Positions 1,738 to 59,649 of a DNA stretch of 64,000 nt are shown in pieces. The translations under genes were made by a program, and so were the position numbers. This DNA comes from Heterodontus francisci (lineage: Eukaryota), in the NCBI RefSeq assembly GCF_036365525.1, contig NC_090393.1, positions 22,063,804 to 22,127,803 of the forward strand. The letters run 5' to 3'. The notes beneath the pieces were generated by a model. It searched no databases, had not been told where the DNA came from, and saw only the letters and a program-made list of their open reading frames with translations. Positions within the stretch are counted from its first letter, which is position 1. Each line of letters opens with the position of its first letter.

Positions 1738-2199
1738 GAAAACAAGCATGTAAGACCCATGCATGAGGCAACACCAGCAACGAATGTCCACATTGAGGCG
1801 GCCAGTTCACATGCATCTAACTCCATTCTCAGTCATGGGTGAATGTTACAATGAGATGGCAGAATGACTGCCTCACCATGCTATGCCAGTGGCATGGTGC
1901 AGCACATTTAGGGCAGAAAATGTGAGCCTGTCACAGTGGCAGACCTGGAAATGTGTGCCGCTTCTGTTAGTCATGTGGGCGGCTGGCTCACTGCAATCAC
2001 ATGTCAGGCAGCCACTTTACATAAAGGAGGCAAGGACCCAGCCAATCACACAGCGGGGGCGAGATATGAGACTCCAAATACAGCATCAGATGACTCTGGA
2101 GCAGGTCCTGGCACCATGCTTTCATTGCAGCCTTGGACAGATTTGCTGCTAGCTCTTCACAACTGAGACTGGTGTTGCAGTGATTTCTGGATCCCCACC

Positions 2200-3990
2200 C
2201 CCTGCAGATGGATCCCGTGGGATGGCAGAGGCAAGACACAGGGTGGCCCCATGGTTCGGCAATGCCTCCCTCGAGCTTCTCCTCCAGGCTGAGGAAAAGG
2301 CATTCTTCCTCAACAATGGCAAGAAGAGGACCTCCCCACTGACCAAGCAAGCCTGAATGGAGATAGTTGGGAAGGTTAGCAGCCATGGGGTCACTGCCTG
2401 GACATGGGTACCGTGCCACAAGAGAGTCAACAACCTCCTTTGTTCTGCCAAGGTGACTGCTCCACAACTCTCTCCATTTTTAGGGACTGCAAGTGGCTAC
2501 GCAGGAGGAAGCGGGACATGGTGAGAGAGGCATTGCAACTTCACAGGCAGAGGGGGTTAGGCATTACCTCATCCCGAAAGATGCCACCTTCTTACACAGC
2601 TCACCCCCATTAACTCCCCTGAGAGCAAACGGGTGCACGAGTTATGCAGGATAGCCCAATAGAGGACAAGGGGCTGACACTAGTAGAACTGTTATGTTGA
2701 TCTCTCTGCAAAGTATGACGATCACCCTCTTTCCACTTGCAGGATAAGAGGGCTTATAACAGGAGGGAGACATCATGGACTGGCGGAGGCAGCCCGGATC
2801 TTCGGCCTCTCTCTACAGATGAGGAGGAGGCATTAGAATCGGTAGGAACCCAAGGTGGCTGCTCCATATCTGATGGAGAGACTGGAGTCTCCGCGCCAGA
2901 GAATGAGGATTGTTTTCCTTCGACATACGGTTCACTTCTGGAGACCCACAGCACATATGGTTAGCATGACGAGATCTGCACAGCCTAACCTGTACATGTT
3001 TGTGTTCTCTCATGCAGGTCGGCATCCACAGGAGACTCGAGCATAAAGGGAACAGCCGTCAACCTCTGAGGAGGATCAGCAGTTAAGAGGATGCATGGCC
3101 CCATGACTCTCCTGCAGCCTCCACCAGTGCAGATACTTTCACCTTGGGGGGGTTTCTGCTGTATAATCAGGGTCACAAGCTGGTGAAAGCACCACACCAT
3201 GCGCGCCCAAGAAGCTGGCTGAAACTGAGACAGCCGAGGTCACCGATAGTTGGAGTAATGTAGGTGGCCAGTCCCGTGCTGAGCCCCAGGCTGATGATGA
3301 GCCTCTGATGTCGACAGCATAGTGCATGCTGCAGTTATAGAGAGAGGCAGGGCAACATCTGGCAGAGATGCCAGAGATAATGCACAGCCATGAGCGGACG
3401 ATGGAGGAGTCCATCCATGCCATGAGTGCTGCCATGCCTCAGGCGTGTGAGCGCATGACTTCCTCCATCGAGTGGTTTGTGACCCTCATTGAGAGCCAGA
3501 TCCCACAGATGCACAAATATCTGCACACCATCCCCTTGGCCATAAGCTCAACACAGCAGTGGCAAGGCAAGAGAAGGACGAGGTGCCTGGAGTCTTCTCA
3601 AAGTGCCATCAGAAAAGTAGCAGATGCTTCAGCAGCTGTATCAAATGCGTGAATATCTGTCAGGGTTTCCAGAGACAGTGAAGTCCCCTGCACAAACAAT
3701 GGAGGAGTCCATCCGTGACATGAGTGGCTCCATATATCTAGCATGTGAATGCATAGCATCCTCCATTGAGTGGTGACCCGCATGGAGAGATGCAAGGAGC
3801 AAAGCACCAAGTGGATGCAGGGGGTACAGACCTCATCCATGAGATCAATGGAACGATGGGTGGGCGAGATGGGCCAGTTATGCATCTCCCTGTTGCCAGG
3901 AGCTCAATCACTCCAGGGGGTGCATGTGGGGCCTGAAAGGGCAGTCAAGGGGCAGGCTGAAGGCATTGAATTTCGTATCAAGGTGCTTTG
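2200..3990 (+). pseudogene. Harbinger Myb/SANT-like (NAIF1/MSANTD-type) DNA-binding protein gene, disrupted and apparently spliced
   Basis: RVAPWFGNASLELLL...W..CHKRVNNLLCSAK then GT (~2453); after an acceptor at ~2742, DKRAYNRRETSWTGGGSPDLRPLSTDEE (xTGGG motif after the Myb-like domain); coiled-coil-like C-terminal part; in-frame stops. Confidence 0.6.
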
Positions 3991-4431
3991 ATGGATGGAG
4001 ATGGATCCTCTTCCCCTTTGACAGTGACACCAAAGCTGCATGCTCGTCTGATGACTGAGGCAGCCCCTGCACAGAGGCCGGTGGCACAAAATGTACCAGG
4101 CCCCAGTAGGGCTCGGGCACCTTGAGGATGCAGGCCACAGCCATCTAATGCACTGGAGCAGGAAAGGCAGGAGCCTGCCCCCCACATTAGCTCCACACAC
4201 AGTGGGAGCACCCATAGAAGTGTCCGTAAGTGAATGGGTAAATGCATGGAATAGCACTTGGGGTTTCACTGGGTGATAATACTTTGTGAACTGCAGAAGT
4301 ATTTAATGTTTAATGAGAGTTAAAGGTCTTGACATGCAATGTAGCAATACTCGTGTTTCTATTTTGTGCAATAGTTGACAGTGACCAGATGTGAAATCAA
4401 ATAGATGGATAGTATGTAACGATGAGCGCCG

Positions 4432-4580
4432 TTTTATTAATTTCATGGGATGAGGCCGTCACTGGCAAGGCCAGCATTTGTTGCCCATCATAATTTCCCT
4501 TGAGCACGTGGTGAGCTGCCTGCTCGAACCACTGCAGTCCATTAGGTGTGGGTACACCCACTGTGCTATTAGGGAGGGAG
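4432..4580 (-). mobile_element. CR1-type 3' tail fragment inside the Harbinger relic
   Basis: Similar to 34180-34310 (GGCCAGCATTTRTTGCCCATC..TAATTKCCCTTGAG). Confidence 0.6.
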
Positions 4581-4759
4581 CCTGTTTGACAGAAGGCCTT
4601 GGCATATAACGCTGATAGGCACAGAGATGCGAAGGGTTTCTGATGAAAGACCAGCAAGGCCGCCTCTAGGAGAAAACTTCTTGGTTTGGTGGTCCTTTGC
4701 ACTTATCATGTGAAGCCTCTGCTGATCAGAGAGTTGCTAATCTCCCTGCCACATGTCAC

Positions 4760-5700
4760 TGTCCTGTGAACTGGGCCCCAGCATGCCATTTTCATCAGCT
4801 GGCACCTGTTGAGGTGCCTCATGTTTATCTTCCTCCAGAGAACGTGGCTTGCTCAATGTGTTCCTTTGGCTCCAGCACTACTTTGCTCTGGTTGTGCAAA
4901 GTGCAGCAGACAACAATATTGTGGGATACCCTTGAAGGTCCATTGCAGGGCCCCCCCAGATCTATCAAGGCATCTAAACTTAGATGGCCTATTTGATGGT
5001 GGCCTTTGTAGTCATATGGCAGCAGTTGTATATGTTCTCTGCCTGTGTGTTGGAGTTGCGAACAAGGGACAGAAGCTGTGACTTCAGTGGATACCCCTTG
5101 TCCCCCAGGATCCAGCCATTTTCAGGTGGCCTCATGAGCTGAGCCATTTGGGACTATCTAAGGATGTAGGAGTTGTGACAGTTTCCTCAAACCTCACACA
5201 CACCTGCATAATCTGCTTATTGTGGTCACAGGCAACATTAAGCAAGTGAAAGCCCTTCCTGTTCACAAAGGTGCCTGGCTGCTCTGAGAGAGCCTTGGTG
5301 GCCACATGAGTACTGTCAATGACCCCCTGCACCTGGGGGAATCCAGCCATGGCCCCGAAGCCAGTTGGCCTGATTGGTTGTGAACTTGATATATTGTCCA
5401 GCCCGACCGTACGTGGCACCCATGACCTCCTTTTATGAAGTGATGAGCCACTGACTGAAAAATGCCACCTAAATCTCCAGATAATCCCTGGAATGAACCA
5501 CTGGTGGAAAAGTTGAGTGTCAATGTCACTTTTAAGGCTACAGGCATTAGGTATATGCAACTTCCCATTGGCATCAACTAATGCTACAGCATGCTGCACA
5601 ACTCTGCCACCATCTCCCTGGAGAGACACAGTTCTCAAAGACATTGATGCTCAGACATCTGCATGAAGCTGAGCCTCTAACAGTACACCCTTTGAGTTGG
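4760..5700 (-). pseudogene. HARBI1-like DDE transposase remnant
   Basis: ORF 5132-5644 contains GFPQVQGVIDSTHV...FVNRKGFHLLNVACD (Harbinger GxIDxTH / NRKG signature); ORF 5263-5577 gives ALKVTLTLNFSTSGSFQ; frameshifted. Confidence 0.85.
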
Positions 5701-6329
5701 CGACCATGAGATTGCCCTCTTGCCCCCATGGTCCTCCTCATCCAATGGCTTCCTCAAGCCACTGGAGCACCCCTGGCTGCTACACAGTCACTCCATGTGG
5801 CTGCATCTCCATCTCTGTGCCACTTTGCTGCTGACTGAAAGACTCAAAATCTCGTAGCATTCACCCCATAGCCACTTGAAGCCTTCACTGCAATGAGGCT
5901 CTCCAGAACCTTGCCCTACCTCCAGTGGCTGCTGTGGAACTGGGAGGCAACTTTCAATAAGCAGCACTTCAGGTTGGCCTCACTCTCTGCAGTGCCTCCA
6001 AACTTGATAGCATTGCTTCCTGAAGATAGTGTACAGACAGCTTCACAGTATAGCTGCCAGTTACATCCACAACTCAACTGGCGATCAGATCTTGCCTCGT
6101 TTGAGTAGGCAAGACTCCAAGCCTCTGTGTGCTGTTGATAAAATCAGAAAAAGGTAGGAAGATGCCTGACGATTGGCTGTTTAATGACCTTAATAACCTA
6201 CCTGCCGCCAATCTGTCAGCCACTGATCTGTCCCACTGCCCACATCTGGTAAAATTGGTCAGCAGCGGGAAGATGTCAAGGAGCCGAACGCCATTTTACC
6301 GCCTCCATGGGGCTGGTAAATTCCCGTCC

Positions 6330-6716: not shown

Positions 6717-7117
6717 CCTTTGAGTTCCCCTTTGAACAGCCATAGAACCGCCTGCAGCGGTGAACCACTAACGGCACTTAAATTCTACAGAGAGTGTAAA
6801 AGAATGTAGGATACAGTGGGGCAAGTGACATTGGTCACTCTGAAGAAAAAGCTCGAATGAATGATAAATGCGTGCTGATATTTCCCTATTGTTCTCAGCT
6901 GAAGGCTGTAATACATTGCCCCATCACAGGTACAAACACAGTGGATGCTTTGCCTGACCCCAGTTTACCGCTGTAAACACCAGCCTTCAAAATTTGGCGG
7001 ATAACGTCAATTTCGTTTTATTTACCCACATGAACTAAATGGTATTTCAAACATCTCGCACCTCCGCTGCTCCTTCAGCTTCGCGCCTGCGTGATGCGCT
7101 CACTGCCCGCGAAGGGT

Positions 7118-7134
7118 CATGGGATCTGTAGTTT
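7118..7134 (-). promoter_or_regulatory. ZNF143/THAP11 (ACTACAnnTCCCA) promoter motif
   Basis: Reverse complement reads AAACTACAGATCCCATG; a CRE-like TGACGTC follows at 7150-7156. Confidence 0.7.
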
Positions 7135-7157
7135 CTCTGTTCTGTTCAGTGACGTCC

Positions 7158-7300
7158 GCGGGCACGCCGCCGGATGTGGCGGTTGCTAAGGCGTCGCTCC
7201 GCCCACTTCAGCGGGCACTCGCCGGATGTGGCGGTTGCTAAGGCGTCGCTCCGCCCACTTCAGCGGGTAGTCCGCCGGATGTGGCGGTTGCTAAGGCACC
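7158..7300 (+). repeat. ~52-bp tandem repeat (2.7 copies); each unit has ETS-like CCGGATGT and an RFX X-box (GTTGCTAAGGC), and the two full units also have a GC box
   Basis: Units start at 7158, 7211 and 7263; X-boxes at 7182, 7234 and 7287; third reads GGTGCCTTAGCAAC on the minus strand versus consensus GTTGCCNTAGCAAC. Confidence 0.85.
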
Positions 7301-7312
7301 GCTAGAGCCGCC

Positions 7313-7618
7313 ATGGCGTCGGATGGTGAGGGTGCGTTGTTGTCGCTGCATTATGAAGTGTTTGGGAAGGTGCAGGGAGTGTTCTTCCGGAAACATACGC
7401 AGAAAGAAGCCAAGCGGCTGGGCCTGACGGGCTGGGTGCAGAATACGGTGCAGGGGACAGTGAAGGGCCAGCTGCAAGGAGCCGAAGAGCGGGTGCGGGC
7501 CATGCAGACCTGGCTCCGCAACACCGGCAGCCCCAAGTCCCAGATAGAAAGAGTCGAGTTCACCAACCAGAAGCGAATCCAGCAGCGGGAATACTCAGAC
7601 TTCCAGATCATCAAATAA
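7313..7618 (+). CDS. ACYP1: Acylphosphatase-1, single coding exon, 101 aa
   Basis: Kozak GCCGCCATGG; VFGKVQGVFFRKHTQ phosphate loop with catalytic Arg; GWVQNT with catalytic Asn; GSPKS; C-terminal YSDFQIIK resembles ACYP1 (YSDFQIVK) more than ACYP2. Confidence 0.95.
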   Translation: MASDGEGALLSLHYEVFGKVQGVFFRKHTQKEAKRLGLTGWVQNTVQGTVKGQLQGAEERVRAMQTWLRNTGSPKSQIERVEFTNQKRIQQREYSDFQIIK

Positions 7619-7740
7619 CCGGCGGCGGCATCATCGACTGCTGGACAGCCAGCGGCCAGGAACCCGCGTCGCCTCGCGTTTGTCCCGGCTCCGCTTCCTC
7701 GGTGGGTGGATACATGCAGACTCTCGGGAGCAATGGAGGG

Positions 7741-7749
7741 AAGGTGAGC
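7741..7749 (+). promoter_or_regulatory. Candidate 5' splice donor AAG|GTGAGC (exon end 7743)
   Basis: Near-consensus donor at the 3' side of the CpG island, 125 nt after the ACYP1 stop. Confidence 0.6.
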
Positions 7750-8335
7750 GTTTCCATGGGCTTCCCATCCCGTTCCGGTTGTTCTTTGCTCTTTAAACTG
7801 CTGCTCTTTCGGCTCGGTTCCCCTGTTTTGAATCTGATTCCACTCCGCCACCTGGGTTATTTATATTGAATGGAACTCGTTTGGAAACAATCCACCCACC
7901 ACCACCTGAACCAGTGGATTATCTCTGTCTCCAAAGTTTGTTTTCCTATGGATGTTAAGGATCTAATGTTGCAGTGATTCTTAGAGTTACATGTTGATGT
8001 TTTGTGTTACCAAATTGTATTTCAAGCAGGTTCCAATTATGTGTTTAATGTTCACGTTGTATCCCTGTTCTTGAGTTTGTTTCTTTTGGGATTAGTGGAA
8101 TCGCCGTCCAACTGTCGGTACCAGCTTTTGACTAATTTGGACAGATCCTGCATCGAGACTTCCCGTCAGCAAGTCAAAGGAACCTTGACTATTTATTGCA
8201 AGATTTGTGTTTGTTTGAATTGTCACATAGGTAGAATGTTTCTTCCACATGGACGCCACATTTCAGCTTTTGCATGACTTCAATGTGAAAAGATTCAGCT
8301 CGAATATAAATATTGATGTAAAATAACATTTAGAT

Positions 8336-8341
8336 AATAAA
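8336..8341 (+). terminator. Candidate poly(A) signal for unspliced ACYP1 mRNA
   Basis: First AATAAA noticed downstream of the CDS; further AATAAA near 8867 and 8982. Confidence 0.4.
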
Positions 8342-8359
8342 TTGTCCAAGGCTAGAGTG

Positions 8360-8720
8360 CCAGCTTCGCTCAGTTGAAAACTCTTGCATCTTAAGTGTGT
8401 TGCAAGGCGAGTACTTGGCACCACATGTAGTTGGTGCAGTAAATGTGAGTGTTAATATTAAGAGTAAATCTGAATGTTACTATATTGGAAGTGCTGTTCT
8501 CAGGACGAGATGTTATGCCAAGGCACCATCTCCCTGTTCCAACACTTCAGGTGGATGTCAATACATCCTATGGCACTAATTCACTGAGGACTACAAGGAG
8601 TTCTGGTATCATAGCTAATATTCCTCCCTAGTTGAACTGATCATCCAATTTCTGTTAGTGATGAATTGCTATGTGCAGAATTGTTGTTGTTTATTCATGG
8701 AACAGCAATCACTCCACGTC
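8360..8720 (+). mobile_element. Old DeuSINE/SacSINE1-like SINE
   Basis: Degenerate reverse-complement similarity to 49670-50040 and 56645-57085. Confidence 0.45.
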
Positions 8721-9369
8721 AAATTATTCAGTTTGAAACACTGAGTAATGCTCCAGATCAAATATTCATTTGGGTCTGTGGCAATTAGAATACCCCTGTT
8801 TAGCAAAGTTTTCTGTGAAGTTTAACAGTGTAACAAAAACTGATTTAGCAAAGTTAACTTTTTTGAAATAAAATGATTCTGCATTAAACATTCTCAAACT
8901 TAATATTTCTATGTGCTTGAGTCATTTGTGTGTCTGAAGCAAGAGTTCTGCTGGGAGAACTTTCTGCTGCACCGAACAGGAAATAAAATGTCATTACGGT
9001 TTGAAAGTTCCTGGACTAGAGGCTAATTTTCAGAAATAACCTGTAAATGACCTCTCAGTCACAAGGGTGCATTTGCAGGTGATAGTCTAAGACTAGGGTT
9101 ACAGCTCTGGCTGCTAACTGAGTTCTGAGAATTTTATGAGAGAACTTTCAACTTGAATGTCAGTTTTACCTCCAGAAAAGTGTTTAAGGCACTGAAAGTT
9201 TGGTCTTGATCTCTCACACCTGTTCCATGCACAGAATTTGCCTATTGCCATTTTGTATCAGGTGGCCATTGTGCCTGCCTGAAATTGGCTGATGTCCATC
9301 TAAATATTTTAAGTAGGGTTCCGTGCTTATTTTATGGCTCAAAAACCTTTTCATCTCTAAATCTGCCCT

Positions 9370-11632
9370 GGTCCTGAACTCATCTTTCCTTAGTTTCTCT
9401 CCTGTCTGCCCTCTGTAAACTCGTCTTGTCCATAAGACGCACCTCCTGCTGTTCGACCCTATTCCCAATAAACTGCTGGCCACCCAACTTTGCTTCCTGG
9501 CTCCCGTGTTATCTGATGTTATTGGTTCTCTTCTCTAGTACTGTTCCCCTCTCTTTCAAATCTGCATTATCACCCCTATCAAAAAGCCATTAAAACTGCT
9601 GCCCCATCTCCAACTTTCCTCTCCTCCCGAATGTCCTCAAACATGTTGTCACCCTCCAAATCTGTGTCCATCTTTCACGGAATGTCATGTTTGAATCCCT
9701 CCAGTCAGCTTTCCGCCCCACCGCAGTACAAAAACGGCCTTACCAAAGTAACACATGACATCCTATGTGACTGTCAATGGTAAACTATTGTTCTTCGACC
9801 GGTTTGCTGCCTTTGACGTGCTTCATCACACCATTTTCTTCCAGTGTCTCCCATTGTCATCCAGCAGGGTAGTACTGCACTTGCCTGGTTCCATTCTTAC
9901 CTATCCAGTGGTATCAGAGATTCACTTGGAATGGTTTTTATTCTCGCTCTTGCAATGTTACCTCTGGTGTTCCCCAAATATCTATCCATGGCCCCCTCCT
10001 ATTTCTCATCTACATGCTGGCACTCAGTGACATCATCCAAAAACACAACTTTAACTTTAAAAAGAGCAGATTTCAGTTAGGTGTGGGGTTTCAAGTCTTA
10101 AAAACCAAATTCTGGAACTAAACCTACCTCCAACCCACCCTCTTGCAGCTTTACCTGAGGCCGAAAGGGGCTGGGCAGCCAACCCGCTCCAAGGAGGCAG
10201 GTTGATACTTTAGTCAAAACAATGAGGCTGCAAGCCTCAGCGTCATTCAGCTTTTCGACTTTAACTCTGGTTATGTCCAGGTGAAGACTTGGCATATCCA
10301 GGAGGTTAGTGCCTGCCTGAAGAACCCCCATGATCGGGCACTCCAGCCCCCACTGACTTTGATCACCAGGACTCTGATCAATTTTCACACCTCTCCTGAT
10401 TCTCCCCATTCTTAGCCTCCAATATTCCCTTTGCACCACCATCACCCCCACGACCTTCCCTGGCCACTAGGACCCCTGGATTGGCAGCCCATTCAATCCA
10501 CTGCTACTGCAAACCCGCCCCCCCCCCCCCCACCGGCCCAGCCCAGCCCAGCGATCAAACATCCCAGGCCCTGGATTGCCTTCAGGAACCGATCGAGACA
10601 TCACTCGCATGCTTTGGCTCAAAAGTCCACAGCATGTGGGGGAATTCCAGATTCCTTGTGCCTTTTGGACCCCCCACCCCCACCATTGTTCCTAGCTGGT
10701 CAGGTAAGTAAGAATTCAGCCCACAGTTTGTTTCCCCAGGTATGCTGTTGACACCCAGCTCTACCCACTGTCTCTAAACCGCCAGATTGCTTATTCGACA
10801 TCACGTATTGGAGGAGCAGAAATTTCCTCCAACTAAATATTGGGAAGATAGACGCCATTACCTTCACTTCTTGCCACAAACCCTTCCTCAGCCACCAACT
10901 CCATCCTTCTCCCTGACAACTGTCTCAGGATAAACCAGATTGTTCGCAACCTAGGTATCATATTTGACTCTAAGACAAGCTTCCAATAACATATCCACAT
11001 CACTAAGACTGCATATTTCTGCCTCTAGCACCAACCAACTCCGCCCCTCCCTCAGCTCATCTGCTGCCAAAACCCTCATCCATGCCTTTGTTACCTCTAG
11101 ACCTGATTATTGCAACACACTCCTGGTCGGCCTCCCACAGTTTACCCTCCGTAAACTTGAGGTCATTTAAAACTCTGCTACCATGTCCTAATTTCCACCA
11201 AGTCCTGTTCACCCATCGTCCATGTACTCGCTGATCCACATTTGCTCCTGATTAAGCAATTAAAATTCTCACCCTTGTTTTCAAATCTCCTTAGACTCGT
11301 CCCTCCCGAGCACTGTAATCTTCTACAGTCCTACAACTCTCTGAGATATCTGCACTCCTCTAATTGTGGCCTCTTGAGCAGCCCTGATTTTAACCATTGG
11401 CAGCCGTGCTTTCAGCTGCCAAGACCCTAAAATCTGGAATTCCCTCCCTGAACCTCTCTGCCTCTTATCCTCTCTTTCCTGCTTAAAGATGCTCCTTAAA
11501 GCCTACCACTTTGACCAAGTTTTTGATCGTCTGCCCTATTATACCCTACGTGACTCAGAGTCAAATTTATAATGCTCATGGGCAGTGCCTTGGGACATTT
11601 TACTATGTTAAAGGTGCTATATGAATACAATT
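9370..11632 (+). mobile_element. L2 LINE 3' portion, interrupted by a MITE at 10048-10722
   Basis: Fragments FAAFDVLHHTI, STALAWFHSYLS, SSAAKTLIHAFVTSRPDYCNTLLVGLP; L2-type 3' end CCTTGGGACATTTTACTATGTTAAAGGTGCTATAT. Confidence 0.85.
10048..10722. mobile_element. Harbinger-type MITE remnant with internal poly-C
   Basis: Interrupts L2; right end TAAGAATTCAGCCC; ACA on both sides (possible 3-bp TSD); left TIR not recognisable. Confidence 0.5.
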
Positions 11633-11885
11633 TATTGAAAGAATTCGGTGAGTCTGTAGAGGGAACTTTGACCAAGCACCTCTTCTGATTCTGGCAAACT
11701 TCTAATTAAATGGGTTTGCTGCTTACACTGGTGGTGTAGCTGGAAGAGGGGGGGAAGTAGCAGGCTGAGGTTCAGGGAGCTACTCAGTGCAGGGATAGAA
11801 GAAGGGAAGCTCATAGGATGCCTTCTGTCCAGAACTTCTGATCTGCACAGCTCAATGAGAAGTCATCCGTGAGGAGGCTCAGAAC

Positions 11886-12218
11886 TCAGTGGTTAGCACC
11901 GCAGCCTCACAGCTCCAGCGACCCGGGTTCAATTCTGGGTACTGCCTGTGTGGAGTTTGCAAGTTCTCCCTGTGTCTGCGTGGGTTTCCTCCGGGTGCTG
12001 CGGTTTCCTCCCACATGCCAAAGACTTGCAGGTTGATAGGTTAATTGGCCATTATAAATTGCCCCTAGTATAGGTAGGTGGTAGGGAAATATAGGGACAG
12101 GTGGGGATGTGGTAGGAATGTGGGATTGGTGTAGGATTAGTATAAATGGGTGGTTGATGGTCGGCACAGACTCGGTGGGCCGAAGGGCCTGTTTCAGTGC
12201 TGTATCTCTAAACTAAAC
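11886..12218 (+). mobile_element. tRNA-derived V-SINE (shark HE1-like)
   Basis: A/B-box head CAGTGGTTAGC...GGTTCAATTC; V-domain TCCTCCGGGTGCT.CGGTTTCCTCCCAC; CR1-like tail GGGCCGAAGGGCCTGTTTCAGTGCTGTA. Confidence 0.9.
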
Positions 12219-13334
12219 TTTTATGCCTTGGGGTCATTCCAATCTGCAGTATGTGATATTTGCAACAGCAGCCCACCTGCTGTGCTGGTCTATACACAGT
12301 TCGCCAAAAGCCAATGACTTTATATCCTTCCCCATGGGCTCTGCACAGCCGGAAGACAGGGCTGAGGGCCTTGCCAGGATTGCAGACTTCCCCCTAGTTT
12401 CAGGGCATCATCAGCAGTACACACCTAGGCTTGCATACTTCAATATAAGAGCCTGGAGACTACAGGAATAGGAAGGAATTTCACTCATTGAACGCCCAGC
12501 TGGTACGCAATGACATGCAGTGTATCGCGTAGCTGTCATGAAAATTTAATTCTACACCAGACCACAATCCCTCCTCTCTTTGACCCCGAAAATCTGTTCA
12601 GAAGAGTCTGGCTGCTCGGGGACAAAAACTATCCATTCCAGAGCAATGCAGTTGTCCCACTTACATTGCATCTGTTTTAATTGTGAGTTGGAAGTTCGCT
12701 TCTATAGGTGAACTGAATTTCACTTCATCCACATAGAACGCTTCATCTTGAAGGTCTACTTGGACACTAAATTTCACCAAAAGCTCCTGTTGCTCACTAA
12801 GATATACCATTGCAAAATAAGTATATAATACTTTCTGAACTGATTTAAGTTCAATTGACAGCTATTTTTTGTTCTCCTGTATTGTGCTTCATCTGTAAAT
12901 ATAAATCCAAATAGTTTTACTCTGTACGTACTGCACTATTGTTTTTGTTATTGCTTTGTGGAAGTGAGGGGGAAATGCCATGGTACAAATAAGGAAACAG
13001 GTTTCTCATTACTGAATCTGCTACTATTTAGTTGTGAATATGAGAGCAGATATTTGAAGACAGCCTGAACTGTAGCAATATCATTGGAGCCTGCAGTGAT
13101 AGATGTAAAAAATATATCAGGTGTACTAAGCCACGGGAGGAGTACCCAATGTTAAAAACTTCCTCACAGCCAGCTGAGTATCTCCAATGGCACCATTTAA
13201 TATAATTGTTGCTTGTCAGAAGCGTTTTATGAAGATTTTATAAATGTATGAAAATAACTTTATTTAAGTTAGCAAATTTGGCCATTAGATCTTCTTGATG
13301 GGACAATCAGTATCCTGGATGGGCGGGGGTGGGT

Positions 13335-13990
13335 GGGATTACCATTGACCAGAAACTTAACTGGACCAGCCATATAAGTACTGTGGCTTCAAAAGCAGGT
13401 CAGGAGGCTGGGAATTCTGCAGTGAGTAACTCACCTCCTGACTCCCCAGAGCCTGTCCACCATCTACAAGGCACAAGTCAGGAGTGTGATGCAGTACTCT
13501 CCACCTGCCTGGATGGGTGCAACTCCAACAAGGCTCAAGAAGCTCAACACCATCCTGGACAAAGCAGCCCACTTAATTGGCACCCCATCCACCTCATTAA
13601 ATATTCACTTCTTCGACCACCAGTGCACAGTGGCAGCAGTATGTATCATATGCAAGATACACCGCAGCAACTCGCCAAGCTTCTTTCAACAGCACCTTCC
13701 AAACCTGTGGCCTCTACCATCTAAAAGGACAAGGGCAGCAGACACATGGGAACACCACCATCTGCATCTCCCTTCCAAGCCACACACCATTCTGACTCAG
13801 AACTGTATTACTGTTCCTTCACTATTGCTGGGTCAAAAACCTGGAACTCCCTTCCTAACAGCACTGTGGTGTACCTACACCAGATGGACTGCAGCAGTTC
13901 AATAAGGCAGCTCACCACCACCTTCTCAAGGGCAATTAAGGATGGGCAACTAATGCTGGCCTAGCCAGTGATGCTCACAACCCCTAAAAA
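13335..13990 (+). mobile_element. CR1 LINE 3' fragment (family B)
   Basis: GITIDQKLNWTSHI; MQYSPPAWMGATPTRLKKLNTI; same family as 34170-36410. Confidence 0.85.
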
Positions 13991-14029
13991 AATTTTTTTA
14001 AATATTGACAATTGCTGTACAAATGAGAT

Positions 14030-14460
14030 GAGGAATTACATGGATAGACTGAAGAAGCTGAGGTTATTCTCCTTCAAGCAGAGAAGGCTAAGGGTAAATT
14101 TGATAGGCGTGTTTAAAATCATGAAGGGTTTTGATATGGTAAACCAAGGAAAATTCTTTCTAATGGCTGAAGGATCAATAACAAGAGGGCACAGATTTAA
14201 GGTAGTTGGCAACAGAACCAGAGGCGATATGAGGAAAAGCTTTTTTATGCAGAAGTGGTTAGGATTCGGAATGCAGTGCCTGATTGGTTGGTGGATACAG
14301 ATTAAATAGGAGCCTTCAAATGGTAATAAGATAAACACTTTAAGAAGAAACAATTACAGGGATAAGGGGAGTAGGACGAACAGGATTGCTCTTCGTAAGA
14401 GCCAACGCAGGCTTGATGGGTTGAATGACTTCTTCGTATGCTGCACTATTCTATGATCCT
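14030..14460 (+). mobile_element. CR1 LINE 3' end fragment
   Basis: RLKKLRLFSFKQRRLRVNLIGVFKIMKG...TRGHRFK. Confidence 0.85.
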
Positions 14461-14775
14461 ATAAATTACAAAATTACCATAATGATATTGAATGGTTATT
14501 ACAACTACATTTCAAAGATAATTCTAATAATGAATACAACAATCTCTTCATTAATGAAAGCTATATGAACAGTAAAGAACATTATTATTTTAAAAAACTG
14601 ATTATTTTAACAGAGTAAGTTAGGTGAACATATTGATAAATAATGTGATACGAACACTGACAAATATGTCACAGTATGAGAGTGTTGATACATCTCGTCT
14701 TTTGACTCCTGTTCCGGAAGATTGGTGTATTACTACTGAGCAGATGGTGCTGGGATTGTGAAGGATTTAATTCGG

Positions 14776-14917
14776 ATGGAGCAGATTCCTCTACCAGCTA
14801 TGTCTCTGTACTCTTCTTTGCCTCATAATATCAGCCAGAGTCTGACCAACTTCAGTGGATCTCTTTTCATCAGCAATAAAACTCGGGACTGTGGTGATGG
14901 ATATAACAATATTCCAG
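14776..14917 (+). CDS. TMEM17: TMEM17 coding exon 1 (ATG at 14776 or in-frame ATG at 14800)
   Basis: (MEQIPLPA)MSLYSSLPHNISQSLTNFSGSLFISNKTRDCGDGYNNIP resembles TMEM17 N-termini; donor CAG|GTAAGA in phase 1 matches exon 2. Confidence 0.8.
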
Positions 14918-15479
14918 GTAAGACACATTAGCAGAAAATGGAGGCTTAGACATGTGACAACCAGCAATAACTCAGAACATGACAGGCATACAGAGAGAGT
15001 TCCCATGCAAGGTACTATAGCAATAACCCAAAGACTTACAAACACAACAAAGTTTAACAGGAAACTTCCACATAATGTTGGCAATAATCCAAAGACCTAC
15101 TGACGCAGATGCTTACACAGGAAGATACAATACCAGCAGTAAGTCACAGTGCATCTACTATAGGGAACTCCTATATATAGTAAAAGAAATAACGATTGAA
15201 AGAGCCATAAAAGAGGATGTAGTACTGGCAATAACTCAGATCGTCAAAACCTGAATAGCCTAATATAAGGATGTCAGAGATATAGTACTAAAGCAACCCA
15301 AGATCCTATAAGTTTTATGTTAACATTGTAGTATATACATTGCACTGTTTATACATTATACCATGGTATTGTGAAGATAATTCCAGTACTTGCAGTAACT
15401 GTCAAGTACAAATTGTGTGTGACTTTACACAGATATGTTAAAATGCAAGCAGTAACAAAGACTTGTACTTAAGACGAAA

Positions 15480-15680
15480 CAGCTTGCATTTCTATAGTGT
15501 CTTTCATCTCAGTATGTCCCAAGGTGTTTAACAGCCAATTAATTGCTTCTGAACTAATAACTATTGTTTTATAGGCAGATTCAGCAGTCAATTTGTGCAT
15601 AGCAAGGTCCCACAAATGGCAAATGATATGTGACTGGTTCATCTGTTTATGGTTGAGTAATGAATGGTCGCCAGTTACCA
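15480..15680 (-). mobile_element. DeuSINE/SacSINE1-like fragment
   Basis: CTTGCATTT.TATAG...CAGC..AATTTGTGCATAGCAAGGTCCCACAAA, shared with 49670 and 56645 copies. Confidence 0.65.
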
Positions 15681-16113
15681 CGCTGTTTTGCAAAAATAAA
15701 AGTATAGTGTGTTAATAAGTAAGTAATACCATGGGACAATTGGCATGGGTTGCTACACGGGCCTTTTCCTTCAGACTGTGGGTTTTAACATCTTCATTTG
15801 ATTTTTTTTTGTTTATCTGCAATATAAAACAAAGAACTTGCATTTATACATAGGATTAATTGTAAAAGGCTATTAAATAGTTTCGGACTTCAGGCACAGA
15901 GTAAAAGACTCTTTAGTTATATTAATAGCGACTAGCTACTTTTCACTGACTTCCCTGTTGTGTTATCACTTTTAATTGAGACTTGCCTGACTGTGCAAAG
16001 TGGTATGTATTGGGATTTACAGCTAAAACTATCTTGGCTGTGATAAGCTATTCTATAATGACCACTGCAAAAAGTTTAAAGATTCATTGAGTTGAGCTGT
16101 TTTCTGTTAACAG

Positions 16114-16217
16114 CTAATGAGATGGTGTCCAGTTTACCTTTGCAAATGGCACTGTATTTCAACGTGTTCTTCTTTCCATTCTGGTGGTTGTCAGAAGTGG
16201 CCATGCTTGAACTTAAG
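16114..16217 (+). CDS. TMEM17: TMEM17 coding exon 2 (104 bp)
   Basis: AG|CT..; (A)NEMVSSLPLQMALYFNVFFFPFWWLSEVAMLELK; donor AAG|GTGAGA. Confidence 0.95.
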
Positions 16218-16897
16218 GTGAGAATTAGTTCCGAGCGTCCAATAGCATCCAATGTGTCAGCCAATGAGTTGAAGGTGAGTGGGTATTATGGCAGGACTCA
16301 CAGCAACCAGACTATTTTACAGCAAAGTCTATTTACTCATTTGCAGCAACATCTCCTAATTTTAAAAAAACAGGGTGATTGCTCCAGAAAAATGCAGTGA
16401 GTGGAGGTGTATCTTTTATAGCTGATCTAATTTGTTAAAGGTTTTTGAGGATGGTGTTGAGAGACATATATAATTTCCATTCTGAGTTCGCAATTATAAG
16501 TGCTACCACATGGAAGTGCTAGATGGAGGTTAGATGCTACTCCAATAAGAGAAAGCCAAGATTAGAGAAACAGTGGTCTAGAAATTAATTCATGCTTGCA
16601 GGGGGTGTGGGAGGGGACGATTGGGAATGGGAGGAGGGATCAGGATCGACGATTGGGAAAGGCCCAAGTTAGGACTGGTAAAGGCCTTCAGCATTGCACT
16701 TTGCTTAGCCTAACATTGGAGCTCCTCCGTTTGTCCTGCTGCAGACATTAAGTGTGTAGATGTTTAGATATTTCTCATTTTTGCAGTTAAACCTGATTGA
16801 GATTCTTCTCAATCCTGCTTATTAGATTGCACTGAATTACAATGAGCAGTTTTGTACTTACTGACCTCTGTTTCTCCTCATCCCCTCCCCAAAGCAG

Positions 16898-17011
16898 TAT
16901 AGCATGTTACCAGGATACTACCAGTGGCTGCTGTTTGCAGCTGTGATAATTCTCACACTAATTGAATGTGTCCGACTTTCTCTAGGCTACACGGGAAACT
17001 TGCAAGAAAAG
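16898..17011 (+). CDS. TMEM17: TMEM17 coding exon 3 (114 bp)
   Basis: Polypyrimidine tract with AAGCAG (NAGNAG) acceptor; YSMLPGYYQWLLFAAVIILTLIECVRLSLGYTGNLQEK; donor AAG|GTGAGT. Confidence 0.95.
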
Positions 17012-18094
17012 GTGAGTGAATTAGAAAAGACAATTAACTGAAAATGTTTTCTCTGGGTGCCTTGCCAATGGCTCATTGGTTAAGTACACCACTTGATGTA
17101 CCAGGTACTCCCCAGTTTAAGGGATGTATACCTGTGTAAGCCGATTGAGGACAGGATCAGGTTCATCAATGACATTCCCTTTGGATCAATAGCTTGCTGA
17201 CATTCACAGTGTCACTTCATACATTGGAGGAAGGGCAGCCAGAATCTATAGAACAGTACCTTAGCATGATTCAGCTCCTGCAAGGGAAGAAGGGAGAAAT
17301 AGGTTTTCTCTTAAATTTATTTCTTGTTTCATTAGTAATGGTATTTTATTCCAAATGCCAATGCACCATTTCCGAATTGAAGGACGTAAAGCAACATCCT
17401 CTCAGACCTCTGCTGAAACTGTTCAGGAGCTGAATGGTAGGAGGAGCAGCCAAGAATTACTCTGAAACTAAGGTCACCTCCTCTTTTGTTGGGAAATGCA
17501 AGATCCTCCTCAGTGGAGCCAACCAAAATAGAAAGCACATCAAGTGGGGAATTGTATTACTCTGTTATCTTTAATCATTAAGGAAATGTTCATAGTAGTG
17601 CAGAAGACAATAAAAGAAAATCCCCCAGTATAAAAAAACCCAGAAATTACAAGTTAATTCTACCTGCAACAACTGTCAACCAACATAAAATGCTAGACTA
17701 ATCATATAAGTTTCTTTTTGATTATAAAAGAAGTCTCATATAAAGTGTAGTACTCTGAAGAAATGTCTAAGAGGCATACAATTTACAATGTTTCATTTAA
17801 GATAAATGAGGGTAATTTTGATGAAAGAGAAAATGTTTGAAATATATGCAATCAGCATCTGAAAGAGAAAGTTAGGTTGTTTCAGACCTTGCTCTTGGTC
17901 AGCAATCTGTTCTTTAATTCAAATTTCTAGCGTTCAGGATTTCTATCTCTCTAATGTAACCAAGGTGTATTATGTGAATTTACAATTGAACCCAATGTTA
18001 TTTGTTATAATAAGAGAAAATACTGTATAGATACTTCTCAGTTTTTCAGTTAAACATGATGGAGAATCTCCTCAGTCCTGCTTGATAGATCAAA

Positions 18095-18552
18095 ATGAAT
18101 GGTCACCGCACTTCGAAAGGATGTATTGGCCGAGGGCAGAATGCAGTACAGATTCACCAGAATGTTATCAGAGCTCCAGATGTTATATTATGAGGAGAGA
18201 TTACATAACTTAAGCTTGTATTCCTTGGAATATTGAATGCTGAAGGTTGATTTGAGTAAGGTTTTTAGGTTTTTTAAAGGAATTGATAGGGTAAAGAGAG
18301 CAACAAGGGGACATAACCTTAAAATCAGTGCCAGGCCAATCAGGAGAGAAGTTAGGAAACACTTCTTCACTCAAAGGGTGGTAGAAGTGTAGAAGTCTCT
18401 CCCACAAAAAAGCAATAGATGTTTTGCTAGCCAAGGGTATTAAGGGAAATGGAGCCAAGGCGGGTTGATAGAGTTAGGGTACAGATCAGTCAAGATCTCA
18501 ATGAATGATAGAACAGGCTTTAGGGGCTGAATGGCCTACTCCTGTTCCTACA
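18095..18552 (+). mobile_element. CR1 LINE 3' end in TMEM17 intron
   Basis: YEERL..L.LYSLE-type coding remnant; tail GGGGCTGAATGGCCTACTCCTGTTCCTA. Confidence 0.85.
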
Positions 18553-18631
18553 CTTAAATTTTGTTTAAGAGTTATAGTCATTATTATTGTGTACTAGCTA
18601 TTGATTCTGCCATTTGCATTTTGACCTGCAG

Positions 18632-18931
18632 CTGCCTGAGTTAGCTGGATTATGGTTGCTGTCCTTTACAATCCAGCTTCCTATTATTCTGTTCCTCCTC
18701 ACCGATAAATCCATCATCATCTTACCCCTGGAGCAGGCTGTTCATATTCTCTACTTCACCTTCCTGGTTTTCGAGTTGGTTGCGGCATTCCAGGCCCTAA
18801 GGAAAATGACAAACCAGTTGGCGACACGCTTCTACCTCCAGCAGTTTCAAGAGTCAGAATGTTCACAACGGCGCAACAGGAGCCAAGAAACTGGTATTCC
18901 ATATGGGAGGAACTCCATTTCCAATGTTTAG
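18632..18931 (+). CDS. TMEM17: TMEM17 coding exon 4 (terminal); protein 211-219 aa, tmem17a-like
   Basis: LPELAGLWLLSFTIQLPIILFLLTD...LPLEQAVH...LRKMTNQLATRFYLQQF...TAG. Confidence 0.95.
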   Translation: MPELAGLWLLSFTIQLPIILFLLTDKSIIILPLEQAVHILYFTFLVFELVAAFQALRKMTNQLATRFYLQQFQESECSQRRNRSQETGIPYGRNSISNV

Positions 18932-27659: not shown

Positions 27660-30365
27660 GTCCTAGGAACATAGGAGCAGGAGTAGGCCATTCAGCCCCT
27701 CGAGCCTGCCTGCCATTCAATATGATCATGGCTGAACATCCACCTCATTGCCTTTTTCCCACACTATCCTCATAGCACCTTATGTCATTTTGTATTTAGA
27801 AATCTGTCAATCTCTGCTTTAAACATACTCAATGACGGAGCTTCCACAGCCCTGTGGGGTAGAGAATTCCAAAGATTCACAACACTTTCGTTAAAGAAAA
27901 TTCTCCTCATCTCTGTCCTAAGTGGTTTCCCCCTTACTTTGAAATTCTTTCCCCTGGTTCTAGACTCCCAACCAAGAGAAACATTTTAGCTGCATCTATC
28001 CTGTCCATCCCTTTAAATATTTTGTAGGTTTCAATGAGATCATCTCTCATTCTTCGAAACTCTAGAGAATACAGGCCCAGGTTCCCCAGTCTCTCTTCAT
28101 AGGACAGTCCCACCATCCCGGGTCTGGTGAACCTTCGTTGCACTCCCTCTATGGCAATAATATCCTTCCTAAGGTAAGGAGACCAAAACTGCACACAGTA
28201 TTCCAGGTGCGGTCTAACCAAGGTTCTGTACAATTGAAGCAAGACTTCACTACTCCTGTACTCAAATCCTCTTGCGATAAAGGCTAACATACCATTAGCC
28301 TTCCTAATTGCTTGCTGAACCTGCATGTTAGCATTCAGTGACTTATTGACTAGAACACCCAGGTCACTTTGGACATCTACACTTTCTAATCTCAACATTT
28401 AAGAAATACTCTGCACATCTATTCCTCCTGCCAAAATGGATAACCTCACATTTTTCCACATTATATTCCATCTACCACGTTCTTGCCCACTCACTAAGTC
28501 TGTCCAAATCCCCTTGAAGCCGCTTTGTATCTTCCTCACAACACACATTCCCACCTAGTTTTGAGCCATTGGCGAACTTGGAAATATTACATTTGTCCCC
28601 ACATCCAAATCATTGATATATATTGTGAACAGCTGGGGCCCAAGCACTGATCCATGTGGTACTCCACTATTCGCGGCCTGCCAATGCGAGAATGACCCGT
28701 TTATTCCTACTCTCTGCTTTCTGTCTGTTAACCAATCCTCAATCCCTGCCAGTATATTACCTCCTATCCCATGTGCTTTAATTTTACTAACCTGTGAGGA
28801 CTTTATCAAAAGCCATCTGAAAATCCAAGTATACCACGTCAGCCGACTCCCCTTTATCAATTCTGTTAGTAACATCCTCAAAAAACTCCAACAGGTTCGT
28901 CAAACATGAATTCCCATTCATAAATCCATGTTGACGATGCCCAATCAGATCATTATTATCCAAGTATCCATTTATCACATCCTTTAGAATAGATTCTAGC
29001 ATTTTCTTAATGACTGACGTAAGGGTCTGTAGTTCCGTGTTTTCCTTCTCCCTCCCTTCTTAAATAGTAGGGTGACATTTGCTACCTTCCAATCTGCAGG
29101 AACTGTTCCAGAATCTATAGAATTTTGGAAGATGATCACCACTGCATCCACTGTCTCCATAGCTACCTCTTTCAAGACTCTGGGATGTAGAATATCAGGT
29201 CCTGGGGACTTATTAACTTTCCGCCCCATTAGTTTCTCCAATACAACCTTCTTACTAATACTAATTTTCTTCAATTCATCATTCCCCCTAATCCCTTGGA
29301 TCTCTAATTCTGGGAGATTTCTTGTATCTTCCTCAGTGAAGACAAACACAAAGTAATCATTTGGCTTCTCTGCCATTTCTCTATTCCCCATTATAAATTA
29401 TCCTGATGCTGCCTGTAATGGACCCACATTTGTCTTAGCCAAATGTTTCCTTTTTACGTACCTGTAGAAGCTTTTACAGTCCGTTTTCATATTTTTTTGC
29501 TAGTTTACATTCATATTCTATTCTCCCTTTATCAGTTTCTTCGTCCTCCTTTGCTGTATTCTAAAATCCTCAGGTTTACTATTATTTCTGGCAACTTTAT
29601 AGGCCTTTTCTTTTATGCAATCCTTAACTTCCTTTGTTATCCAAAGTTGACTGCCTTTACTTTGGGGGTTTTTGTGCCTTGAAGGAATGTATAGTTGCTG
29701 CAACCTATGTAATATTTATTTAAAGACTATCCATTGCCAATGTACTGTCATACCTTTTAATGTATTTTCCCAGTCCACCTTAGCCAATTTGCCCCTCATA
29801 CCTTCATAATTTCCTTTGTTCAAATTTAACACCCTGGCTTCAGATTGAGCTACCTCACTTTCAAACATAATGTAAAATTCTATCATATTGTGGTCACTCA
29901 TCCCTAAATGTTCTTTTACAACAAGATTAGTAATTAGCCCTTTCTCATTACATAAAACTAGATCTAAAATAGCCTTTTCTGTAGTCGGTTCCTCAACATA
30001 CTGCTCTAGAAAACCATCCCTAACACACTCCAGAAACTCGTCCTCCATAGTATTGGTGCTAGTTAGGTTTACCCAGTCTATATGCAGATTGAAGTCACTT
30101 ATGATTACCATATTACCCATGCCACTTCTCTAATCTGACTAATACCTTGCCCACACTACCACTACTATTTGGCCTGTAAACAACAGCTACCAATATTTGC
30201 TGCCCCTTGCAGTTTCTTAGCTCCACCCAAACAGATTGCACATTTTGTTCTTCCGATCCTTTACTAATGTACTGATCCCATCCCTTCTTATCAGCGCAAC
30301 ACCACCTCCTTTTCCATTTTGTCTGTCCTTCCTAAATGTCGAATGTCCTTGAATACTCAGTTCCC
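27660..30365 (-). mobile_element. Long degraded CR1 LINE ORF2 (endonuclease C-term, RT, 3' end)
   Basis: Frameshifted ORFs [75 protein letters not shown]. Confidence 0.95.
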
Positions 30366-36410: not shown

Positions 36411-37559
36411 GCTGTATCTTCTACTGTGAAGACAGACACAAAATATTTGTTCAATGTCTTTGCTATTTCCTCATTCCCCATGATAATTTCTCCTGTCTCT
36501 GCCTCTAAGGGACCAACGTCTACTTTAGCTACTCTCCTTTTTATGTATTTGTCAAAGCTCCTACAATCTGTTTTTATATTGATGGCTAGTTTACTCTCAT
36601 TCTATTTTTTCCCTTTTTATCAACTTTTCGGTGGCCCTTTGCTGATTTCTAAAACACTCCGAATTCTCAAGCTTACTACTATTCTTTGCCTGGGTGTAGT
36701 GGGGATCTTGCCACATGAGGAAATCTTGGGTTTTGACTCTGTCTTGTTGCTCTTCAACAACAATGTGCCGTTTTATTGTTCCACTTTTTTTTTTAACTTA
36801 TTCACTTGTTTTATGGGGTGTGGGTGGAATATTTCAGCTCTTCCTGCACTTTGTCCAAACTCCTGGTAATTCCATACACAGCTTCTGGGTCTTACCTGTA
36901 TCATATTACTGGGCGATGGCCAGGCCCATTGTCGTACAGTCTGACAGAGAAAAGGAATTGGGAAAGAGGGTCACTGCACAGGCTTATATGCACTCCCTAG
37001 CAGCCAGCTGTAGAGCAGTATTGGTTGAAGGCTGAGGCAGTCTGTCTGCTCCGATGGGGTCATACAGGGGTTTTTGCTAGTCTTGCAGTGTTGTGATACC
37101 ACAATACAAGAACATGACCTGAGAGTGCAAAGTGAGGGCACTCACAGAGACTGGTGATCACTGGAAGTGAGGGTGGAAGGCATTTTGTAGAAAAGGTTGG
37201 ACACAGACTGAGCATTTTTAGTGTAAGTAATGCAACACTTTTTTCAGCAATGTATCACAATAGATTTGGGTGTTTCCTGCTTTCCAGTTTTTCTTCTTCC
37301 TCTTTTGTATCTGGTGCACTTTTGAAAAGTTGAGTGCAACAAGACCTCCTTTGGTTTGTTTTTGCACTGTGGCGACTAATGATGTATATTCACGATTACA
37401 GGAAATTTCTTAGCACTGCATAGGTGCCAATGTGACTCACAGTAACTGAGAGGCCTCCATAAACAATCCTAGCTTACAGTGAATCCCTAGGACAGTATTA
37501 TCAGACTGTTAACAACCTAGACATCCTAACTGACTCTGAGATTAGTTTCCAACCAAACA

Positions 37560-59320: not shown

Positions 59321-59649
59321 TCTGTACCAACATTAAGTACTCTCAGGTCAGCTGCAGCGCATGTTACTTTTCCATTTTCCATATCAGCCATCCTGTGGCC
59401 TCTCACAGTGAGGTTGTCAGTGCCAGATTAGCAATAAGTTTGTGCTGTGGCCTTTGCCGATTTGGCTGGATTGAGACTTGGGCCAGAATTTTACACCACC
59501 TCAGTTAGCCGGATGGAAGCAGGGAGGGTGGTGTAATGTAGACGTGAAAGACCATTCAGGAATACCTGGCGGCCTTCCAGCGAGCTGGGGCGCGGGAGCC
59601 TGACAATCAGGCACAGGGTGCTTCTGCAATTATCCCCATGACCCTAACG

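Follow-up and report, generated by a model that had tools for sequence, protein, structure and literature searches.

The window analysed here, a stretch of 64,000 nucleotides from the shark Heterodontus francisci (contig NC_090393.1), carries the acylphosphatase gene ACYP1 in a single exon and, further downstream on the same strand, a gene of the TMEM17 family with four coding exons. The simplest reading of ACYP1 at this position, and one that we consider likely, is that it is the product of retroposition. The best single reading of the sequence is that the CpG island around ACYP1 acts as a shared promoter, with a first exon that would end at donor 7743/7744 and be spliced to the TMEM17-like gene; we give shared use of the island with splicing from this donor about an even chance. 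The fuller model that we favour, at slightly less than even chances, assigns the island two products, an unspliced ACYP1 mRNA and a spliced TMEM17-like mRNA mostly lacking the ACYP1 open reading frame (ORF). The features on which the analysis draws are as follows.

6901-7950: CpG island (GC 0.56, CpG observed/expected ratio 0.87, 73 CpG)
7120-7156: regular-expression matches at 7120 (reverse strand) and 7150, presumably a ZNF143/SBS-like motif and a CRE, respectively
7158-7297, + strand: repeat with 2.7 copies of a 52-bp unit, X-box half-sites at 7182, 7234 and 7287
7313-7618, + strand: ACYP1 coding sequence (CDS), 101 residues, single exon, probable retrogene, PF00708
7323-7331, + strand: internal donor ATG/GTGAGG (7325/7326), phase 1 from the ACYP1 ATG; 204 of 1000 CDS shuffles as good
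7619-7743, + strand: first part of the ACYP1 3' untranslated region (UTR), where a candidate TMEM17-like exon 1 would end; ATG 7714 in weak and ATG 7733 in strong context
7741-7759, + strand: donor AAG/GTGAGC (7743/7744) at the 3' edge of the island
7744-14720, + strand: candidate 7-kb first intron, containing a strong donor (10703/10704) and repeats that recur in other parts of the window
8336-8990, + strand: candidate ACYP1 poly(A) signals (AATAAA at 8336, 8867 and 8982; ATTAAA at 8883)
14460-14725, + strand: elements of a rival local promoter (TATA-like 14460, donor AGA/GTAAGT 14614/14615, CCGGAAG 14714, ATTGG 14721)
14696-14720, + strand: best acceptor before the TMEM17-like ATG exon, a pyrimidine tract followed by AAG, in the top 10% of AGs in the window
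14776-14917, + strand: TMEM17-like coding exon 1; ATG 14776 is the RefSeq isoform X2 start, ATG 14800 the start common to bony-vertebrate orthologues
16114-16217, + strand: coding exon 2, with an in-frame alternative donor at 16274
16898-17011, + strand: coding exon 3, with a tandem acceptor 3 nt upstream
18632-18931, + strand: coding exon 4 and stop, the four exons giving exactly the RefSeq protein P0001
19188-19222, + strand: TMEM17-like poly(A) signals (AATAAA 19188, ATTAAA 19217)

The island at 6901-7950 was the only one found when a criterion of GC above 0.5 and CpG observed/expected above 0.6 was applied to positions 1-24,700, a range that reaches just 7 kb further upstream. As the original prediction had held, the ACYP1 promoter is therefore the only island ahead of the TMEM17-like gene, and no other lies in the 14.7 kb upstream of its ATG exon, which supports a shared promoter. 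Splice sites were scored with an approximate donor matrix, and chance was estimated from dinucleotide shuffles. By this measure the three real TMEM17-like donors score 6.5-8.0 and donor 7743 comes to 6.3. The 7743 site is near-consensus, stands 125 nt past the ACYP1 stop and precedes any AATAAA (the first past 7000 is at 8336, followed by 8867 and 8982), all as described earlier. A donor at least as good arose in 9 of 1000 shuffles of 7619-7950 and in 40 of 1000 shuffles of 7619-8335; nine such donors occur along 59 kb of + strand sequence. Purines make up 0.54 of the bases before the site and 0.32 of those after it, a shift into a pyrimidine-rich stretch that may mark the start of a first intron.

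All coordinates given in the original prediction were right (ACYP ORF, donor 7743, AATAAA 8336, AG ends 14720, 14743, 14784 and 14797), and the four proposed acceptors fared unequally. The three real TMEM17-like acceptors score 0.8-2.6, a range that 14720 alone reaches (0.8) among the AGs of 14400-14800; 14743 (-2.5), 14784 (-4.1) and 14797 (-4.4) are poor. The signal is better than chance, not strong. Between 7743 and 14720 lie repeats with copies elsewhere in the window (10936-11505, 11864-12217, 13334-13989 and 14089-14343), and no candidate-intron ORF of at least 55 residues matched Pfam. The segment 10400-10740 is exon-like: its acceptors are usable, and no donor in the interval is stronger than its CAG/GTAAGT (10703/10704), again with no Pfam match. 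It may represent a cassette exon, an alternative exon of the 5' UTR or a piece of a repeat. This donor and the one inside the ACYP1 CDS at 7325/7326 had both been missed earlier.

Homologues were taken from the best 120 of 436 ACYP matches and 120 of 213 TMEM17 matches. The ACYP1 ORF is intact, begins in the perfect Kozak context noted in the original prediction (gccgccATGG) and matches PF00708 with an E-value of 5e-26. It retains the phosphate loop and the residues that we take to be the catalytic Arg and Asn, and ungapped alignment placed it closer to ACYP1 chains (118-132 bits) than to 1aps (109 bits), presumably the muscle-type acylphosphatase ACYP2. Its best homologues are named acylphosphatase-1 or acylphosphatase-1-like, with 71-82% identity in 10 other named chondrichthyan entries and the lowest value, 69%, in Leucoraja. 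The best poly(A) context behind it is at 8867/8883, where the downstream element is U-richest. In Hemiscyllium, the ACYP1-like protein P0019 has a 12-residue C-terminal extension resembling read-through of the 3' UTR of the window (7616-7650), so these two sharks seem to have kept the sequence immediately past the ACYP1 stop.

Several observations point to retroposition, a likely origin of ACYP1 that the original prediction did not contain. ACYP1 occupies one exon here, whereas the TMEM17-like gene keeps three coding introns. Within single amniote species (Condylura, Cricetulus, Varanus, Laticauda, Pogona), ACYP1 isoforms part ways 3-5 residues ahead of the start Met, which we read as the probable mark of a 5'-UTR intron missing at the shark locus; in the window, the promoter unit continues directly into the ACYP1 ATG. 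The direction of the move is suggested by the loss of introns. Among the best matches considered, each cartilaginous-fish species has one ACYP1-like entry, and loss of the parental ACYP1 in this lineage is plausible.

The catalogued ACYP1 entry of H. francisci and P0001 lie on records of the same size (83,741,193). In Narcine bancroftii, the only other cartilaginous fish listed with sizes for both genes, ACYP1 and TMEM17-like are likewise on a chromosome of one size (321,486,706). In contrast, the two genes were on different records in each of the nine bony vertebrates that had a size given for both genes (Podargus, Aegotheles, Strix, Eublepharis, Sphaerodactylus, Tiliqua, Leptodactylus, Pyxicephalus and Staurois), of which Staurois is represented by small scaffolds and Strix by the longest of two contigs. 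ACYP1 thus occupies a locus different from that of the parent, being linked to the TMEM17-like gene in the shark, on one chromosome with it in Narcine and on another record in each of the nine bony species. Soft evidence for linkage comes from chromosome sizes in pairs of related species, which are similar in three (Rhinoraja 34.8 and Leucoraja 33.3 Mb, Hemitrygon 109 and Hypanus 112, Rhincodon 47 and Stegostoma 52), agree more loosely in two (Carcharodon 147 and Cetorhinus 126; two Scyliorhinus, 426 and 314) and disagree in one (Chiloscyllium 104 vs Hemiscyllium 60). The arrangement is real and probably specific to cartilaginous fishes.

The spliced product of the four downstream exons is an exact match to P0001, 'transmembrane protein 17-like isoform X2 [Heterodontus francisci]', with 68-88% identity in 11 other chondrichthyan entries. 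The earlier assignment to the TMEM17 family therefore stands, and the gene within the family is another one: in a tree of 31 of the 120 rows (named proteins picked by hand, no outgroup), a branch of 0.73 with 100/100 support has eight mammal-type rows on one side and, on the other, 10 rows from sharks together with 13 of the 17A/17B-like kind, making this gene a TMEM17A/'17B-like' paralogue rather than mammal-type TMEM17. A ciliary role would be expected from the family.

Of 12 cartilaginous-fish TMEM17-like entries (11 species), 11 begin inside the ATG exon: six at the equivalent of 14800, two at 14776, one at 14770 and two at 14758. The Callorhinchus model lacks the ATG exon, and nearly all bony orthologues have the Met equivalent to 14800 as their first residue. 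None of the 12 begins with the peptide of ATG 7714 or with the ACYP1 N-terminus. These annotated starts argue against acceptors 14784 and 14797 in four species and against in-frame chimeras; protein models are uninformative on non-coding first exons. The proposed start at ATG 7714 is indeed in frame with TMEM17 through 14784 (and also through 14763), but its use found no support: the acceptor scores -4.1, no entry begins in this way and five of the 12 begin upstream of 14784.

Exon 2 has an alternative donor AAG/GTGAGT at 16274 (score 8.0, against 6.5 for the annotated site) that would add 19 residues in frame (16218-16274), and the tandem acceptor 3 nt 5' of exon 3 (16894) would add one. Either site could be the source of RefSeq isoform X1, and since both are in frame this isoform requires no upstream exon. 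An ACYP-TMEM17 fusion protein was considered and rejected, as PF00708 was present in 0 of 14 and in 0 of 120 (of 213) listed TMEM17 matches. BLASTP of ACYP1 against the 120 returned nothing at E ≤ 1, and PF00708 was also missing from five long low-identity TMEM17 representatives (5 of 150 listed). In Polypterus, the annotation joins a mammal-type TMEM17 (P0236) to a histone H3 domain, a fusion that probably stems from merged gene models.

Each 52-bp unit upstream of ACYP1 consists of an ETS-like word (CCGGATG), an ATG and an X-box half-site, where the names ETS and RFX X-box are ones that we assume for these words. The three X-box matches are copies of one repeat unit and do not exceed chance (3 against a shuffle mean of 1.19, with 12 of 100 shuffles reaching 3). 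The full palindrome is found at 7287 with three mismatches, and 10 such matches occur where 7.5 are expected. A fourth X-box-like half-site lies at 7750, just 3' of donor 7743/7744. Four of the five + strand half-sites of the window fall in the island and none in 14300-14950, a pattern chosen post hoc. Across the whole window, regular expressions matched the ZNF143/SBS-like motif once and the CRE three times.

The weight of the promoter unit comes from relatives, not from motif counts. The ATG of the unit translates to MWRLLR, and annotated N-terminal extensions of ACYP1 start with MWRLLR in Hypanus, Mustelus and Scyliorhinus and with MWRLLW in Cetorhinus; RLL[RWK] occurs in five of six named shark and ray extensions vs 0 of 44 from bony vertebrates (seven unnamed rows excluded). 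Judged from these translated extensions, the promoter unit with its X-box seems to have been kept in sharks and rays alike. The conserved element is more likely a DNA motif than a peptide, because the three repeat ATGs in the window are out of frame or closed and the extension is absent from four of 10 other named shark and ray ACYP1 entries. A mitochondrial presequence is disfavoured on the same two grounds, and the MWRLLR extension may possibly serve as one in some species. In Leucoraja, the N-extension of the ACYP1-like protein P0025 contains VSMTT, the peptide that a near-perfect X-box palindrome would give, besides an RRLLR unit.

What a joint transcript could encode depends on where it starts. 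An RNA spliced from 7743 to 14720 and starting above 7313 would carry AUGs at 7313, 7323, 7353, 7502, 7714, 7733 and 14744 before reaching 14776 or 14800. The first of these seven has perfect context, the three repeat ATGs come on top, and the frame of ATG 7714 would run for 45 codons into the TMEM17 exon out of frame. A stop codon more than 50-55 nt above an exon junction marks an mRNA for nonsense-mediated decay (NMD), so that the ACYP1 stop, 125 nt above the junction, would give the full-length spliced RNA such a signal. The obstacles of NMD and reinitiation raised in the original prediction are thus real. Because this RNA would be a poor TMEM17 template, we favour an island with two products; a start at 7620-7710 would leave no more than a single AUG in weak context and a pair of short ORFs, of 9 and 5 codons.

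Under the favoured reading, a reverse-transcribed ACYP1 copy would have inserted at an RFX-type CpG-island promoter upstream of a TMEM17A-type gene in the cartilaginous-fish lineage, where it probably took over from the original ACYP1, and the island would now drive both genes. Unspliced RNA would be cleaved past the island, where the DNA is AT-rich (8867 being the best signal, with an end near 8890), and yield ACYP1, while RNA using the 7743 donor would be spliced to about 14720 and yield the TMEM17-like product. The TMEM17-like protein would come mostly from spliced RNAs starting behind the ACYP1 ORF (7620-7710), reinitiation on the NMD-prone full-length bicistronic form contributing a small share at most. 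U1 binding competes with the use of poly(A) sites, and the switch between products may be set by U1 at 7743 against the poly(A) sites 0.6-1.2 kb downstream. The shared promoter and first exon proposed earlier are hence retained as the best reading, while a working bicistronic mRNA seems on balance improbable.

A number of points weigh against this reading. When the entire island was shuffled, a donor as good as 7743 arose 72 times in 1000, the stronger donor 10703/10704 lies in the same interval, and a set of TATA-like, donor and ETS elements is present at 14460-14725. On the side of retroposition, the coding intron of bony ACYP1, at a position homologous to 7402, is a presumed one, and a parental ACYP1 may survive in cartilaginous fishes beyond the best 120 of 436 matches. 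A poly(A) relic or target-site duplication would not be expected to survive in an old insertion; the absence of any run of at least six A in 7619-9300 is in keeping with such age and lends a retrocopy no support. Sharing a chromosome in Narcine is weak evidence of adjacency, given that the chromosome measures 321 Mb. The RFX X-boxes, earlier taken as a pointer to TMEM17, are weaker in this role than claimed and need not serve the TMEM17-like gene, since mouse Acyp1 is itself RFX-bound. In PMC7498320 it appears beside Zc2hc1c among the promoter peaks tabulated for RFX1 and RFX3, in an RFX1 list of at least 1790 rows, and one knockout block marks it as 'Down low' (-0.62, p 3e-6). PMC4498915 reports it as RFX2-bound in testis. 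Mouse Acyp1 thus appears mildly RFX-dependent.

The most substantial alternative, which we rate as possible though less probable than the two-product island, is that of two independent tandem genes. ACYP1 would own the island, and the TMEM17-like gene would be driven by an AT-rich promoter of its own, restricted to certain tissues and lying at about 14.45-14.75 kb, perhaps followed by a short intron at 14615-14720; donor 7743 would then be a chance occurrence or rarely used. The TATA-like word at 14460, the donor at 14615 (score 3.4) and the CCGGAAG/ATTGG pair at 14714-14725, present as the original prediction had said, would suit such a promoter. ACYP1 alone would explain the X-boxes and has usable poly(A) signals, and with 11 of 12 entries starting within the ATG exon no upstream exon is needed. 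Neither an island nor an X-box half-site lies near 14.7 kb, however, where 14400-14950 is AT-rich (GC 0.35, CpG observed/expected 0.41); the window holds 179 copies of CCAAT/ATTGG and 31 of the TATA pattern, and the position of the retrocopy, just upstream and on the same strand, would be left unexplained. Moreover, mouse Tmem17, a paralogue, has RFX1 and RFX3 peaks at +313 and +375 in PMC7498320.

A true bicistronic mRNA starting above 7313 and carrying both ORFs, with ACYP1 as a 101-codon upstream ORF throttling the TMEM17-like gene in the manner of STREMI/SLC35A4, overlaps the favoured reading, so that the two are not mutually exclusive; we regard it as unlikely. The conserved unit above the ACYP1 ATG makes it probable that the main start site is upstream of ACYP1, and splicing from 7743 would therefore take in the whole ACYP1 ORF. 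Protein-coding upstream ORFs, 14.3% of them intronless, are known from human bicistronic transcripts, and both proteins are conserved here, a property that PMC13303939 attaches to such loci. Against this stand the seven AUGs between 7313 and 14776 together with the repeat ATGs, a first AUG in perfect context, the 45-codon frame from ATG 7714 and an ACYP1 stop followed by the near junction and three further ones. Similarly unlikely is the most far-reaching version, in which an ACYP1 orphan retrogene would lie within the first exon of the TMEM17A-type gene across cartilaginous fishes and one RFX promoter would yield either an enzyme mRNA, ended by poly(A) sites in intron 1, or a bicistronic mRNA whose complete enzyme ORF, lying upstream, sets how much of a ciliary transition-zone protein is made, with a U1/poly(A) switch at 7743.

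A shared start codon is highly improbable by comparison. Here the ACYP1 ATG would be joined through the donor at 7325, 13 nt into the CDS, to 14740, 14743 or 14797, giving N-extended TMEM17-like proteins of 235, 234 and 216 residues. Three of seven acceptors tested are in frame, residues 5-7 (G-E-G/A) are compatible with the donor in nine of 10 other named shark and ray ACYP1 proteins, and NMD and reinitiation would be sidestepped. The three acceptors nevertheless score -2.5 or worse, such a donor arises in about a fifth of the CDS shuffles counted above, Heptranchias has D at residue 5, isoform X1 is explicable by 16274 or 16894, and the 12 TMEM17-like entries lack the ACYP1 N-terminus, six beginning at the 14800-equivalent Met. 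The internal donor is probably a chance occurrence.

For comparison with known systems, we take TMEM216 to belong to the same Pfam family as TMEM17, and the mouse Acyp1-Zc2hc1c pair to be arranged head-to-head with a multi-exon structure. Among the papers listed by a literature search, no title or abstract dealt with an ACYP1-TMEM17 locus, most subscription journals lying outside its coverage. PMC13303939 describes 14 human bicistronic transcripts, with a proposed origin by retroposition and read-through, in which 50% of downstream and 14.3% of upstream ORFs are intronless; 'ACYP' is absent from its main text. The 'gene symbiosis' cases STREMI-SLC35A4, MIURF-MIEF1, PYURF-PIGY as well as ASDURF-ASNSD1 resemble the shark locus in placing two unrelated older proteins at one locus and in having one intronless partner and a small coding ORF upstream of a larger membrane-protein ORF. 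Unlike SLC35A4, a downstream retrocopy, the intronless partner here is upstream, is a classical enzyme and has its own poly(A) signals in the candidate host intron; joint transcription was seen in long reads there and would be a prediction for the shark locus. Retroposition-born bicistronic genes have already been described, and the present locus behaves like a retrogene seated on a host promoter.

Retrocopies using host or CpG-island promoters are reported in PMC4772013, including 10 orphan retrogene families, nine of them with CpG-island promoters. Like these, ACYP1 is an intronless copy at a new locus with a CpG-island promoter, and apparently the sole ACYP1 listed per species. The mammalian host-gene retrocopies described so far lie in introns and are spliced to upstream host exons, or form head-to-head pairs, whereas the shark copy would lie within the first exon of its host, on the same strand. 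The TMEM138-TMEM216 pair, head-to-tail and co-regulated by RFX4 as reviewed in PMC3631122, likewise joins a ciliary TMEM gene to an unrelated same-strand neighbour under RFX control; it differs in having separate transcripts and a common intergenic element, with neither a retrocopy nor a shared exon. In the mouse, too, ACYP1 adjoins an RFX-controlled gene, Zc2hc1c, under RFX binding, although the neighbour and the chromosome are different (PMC7498320 and PMC4498915).

Elsewhere in the window, 382 ORFs of at least 55 residues (1-59,500, low-complexity stretch excluded) yielded only ACYP, TMEM17 and long interspersed nuclear element (LINE) domains and sub-threshold matches. Twelve candidate pieces and one Atlas query gave no named gene, there was no Rfam match, and no head-to-head partner of ACYP1 was found in a search that short exons would escape. 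An open LINE reverse-transcriptase frame of 502 residues (RVT_1, E 5e-35) lies at 44358-45866, with broken LINE copies at 27,900-30,100 and 34,300-36,500. At about 2000-6300, inspection by eye suggested a decayed transposon, presumably of the PIF/Harbinger type, with transposase-like frames at 4825-5650 (- strand) and a Myb-like partner at about 2150-2500, none matching Pfam. Two exon-like + strand pieces with good splice signals at 47090-48070 (about 47092-47150, hydrophobic, and 47874-48068) had no continuous open frame and no database match. A weak PRY match at 38177-38377 (- strand; E 7e-4) fell below the curated cut-off and had no supporting exons. The region 59550-63450 consists of about 4 kb of C/T-rich low-complexity sequence and an assembly gap (224 N in the window), being a CpG island by formula only, and a smaller stretch of similar kind lies at 51400-52200.

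If the TMEM17-like gene should have its own promoter, what remains would be an apparently unreported ACYP1 retrogene of the shark lineage, of modest interest. Should the joint transcript be real, the locus would put the 'gene symbiosis' model to a lineage-specific test, and in the less common arrangement in which the retrocopy supplies the upstream ORF; bony vertebrates, with both genes unlinked, are the control. The retrogene would also be one that displaced its parent while being kept under RFX control, which bears on the presence of ACYP1 in RFX target and CilDB lists. In the most far-reaching version, ACYP1 would have left one RFX-driven neighbour, Zc2hc1c, for a second one, a potential hint of a ciliary role for this enzyme.

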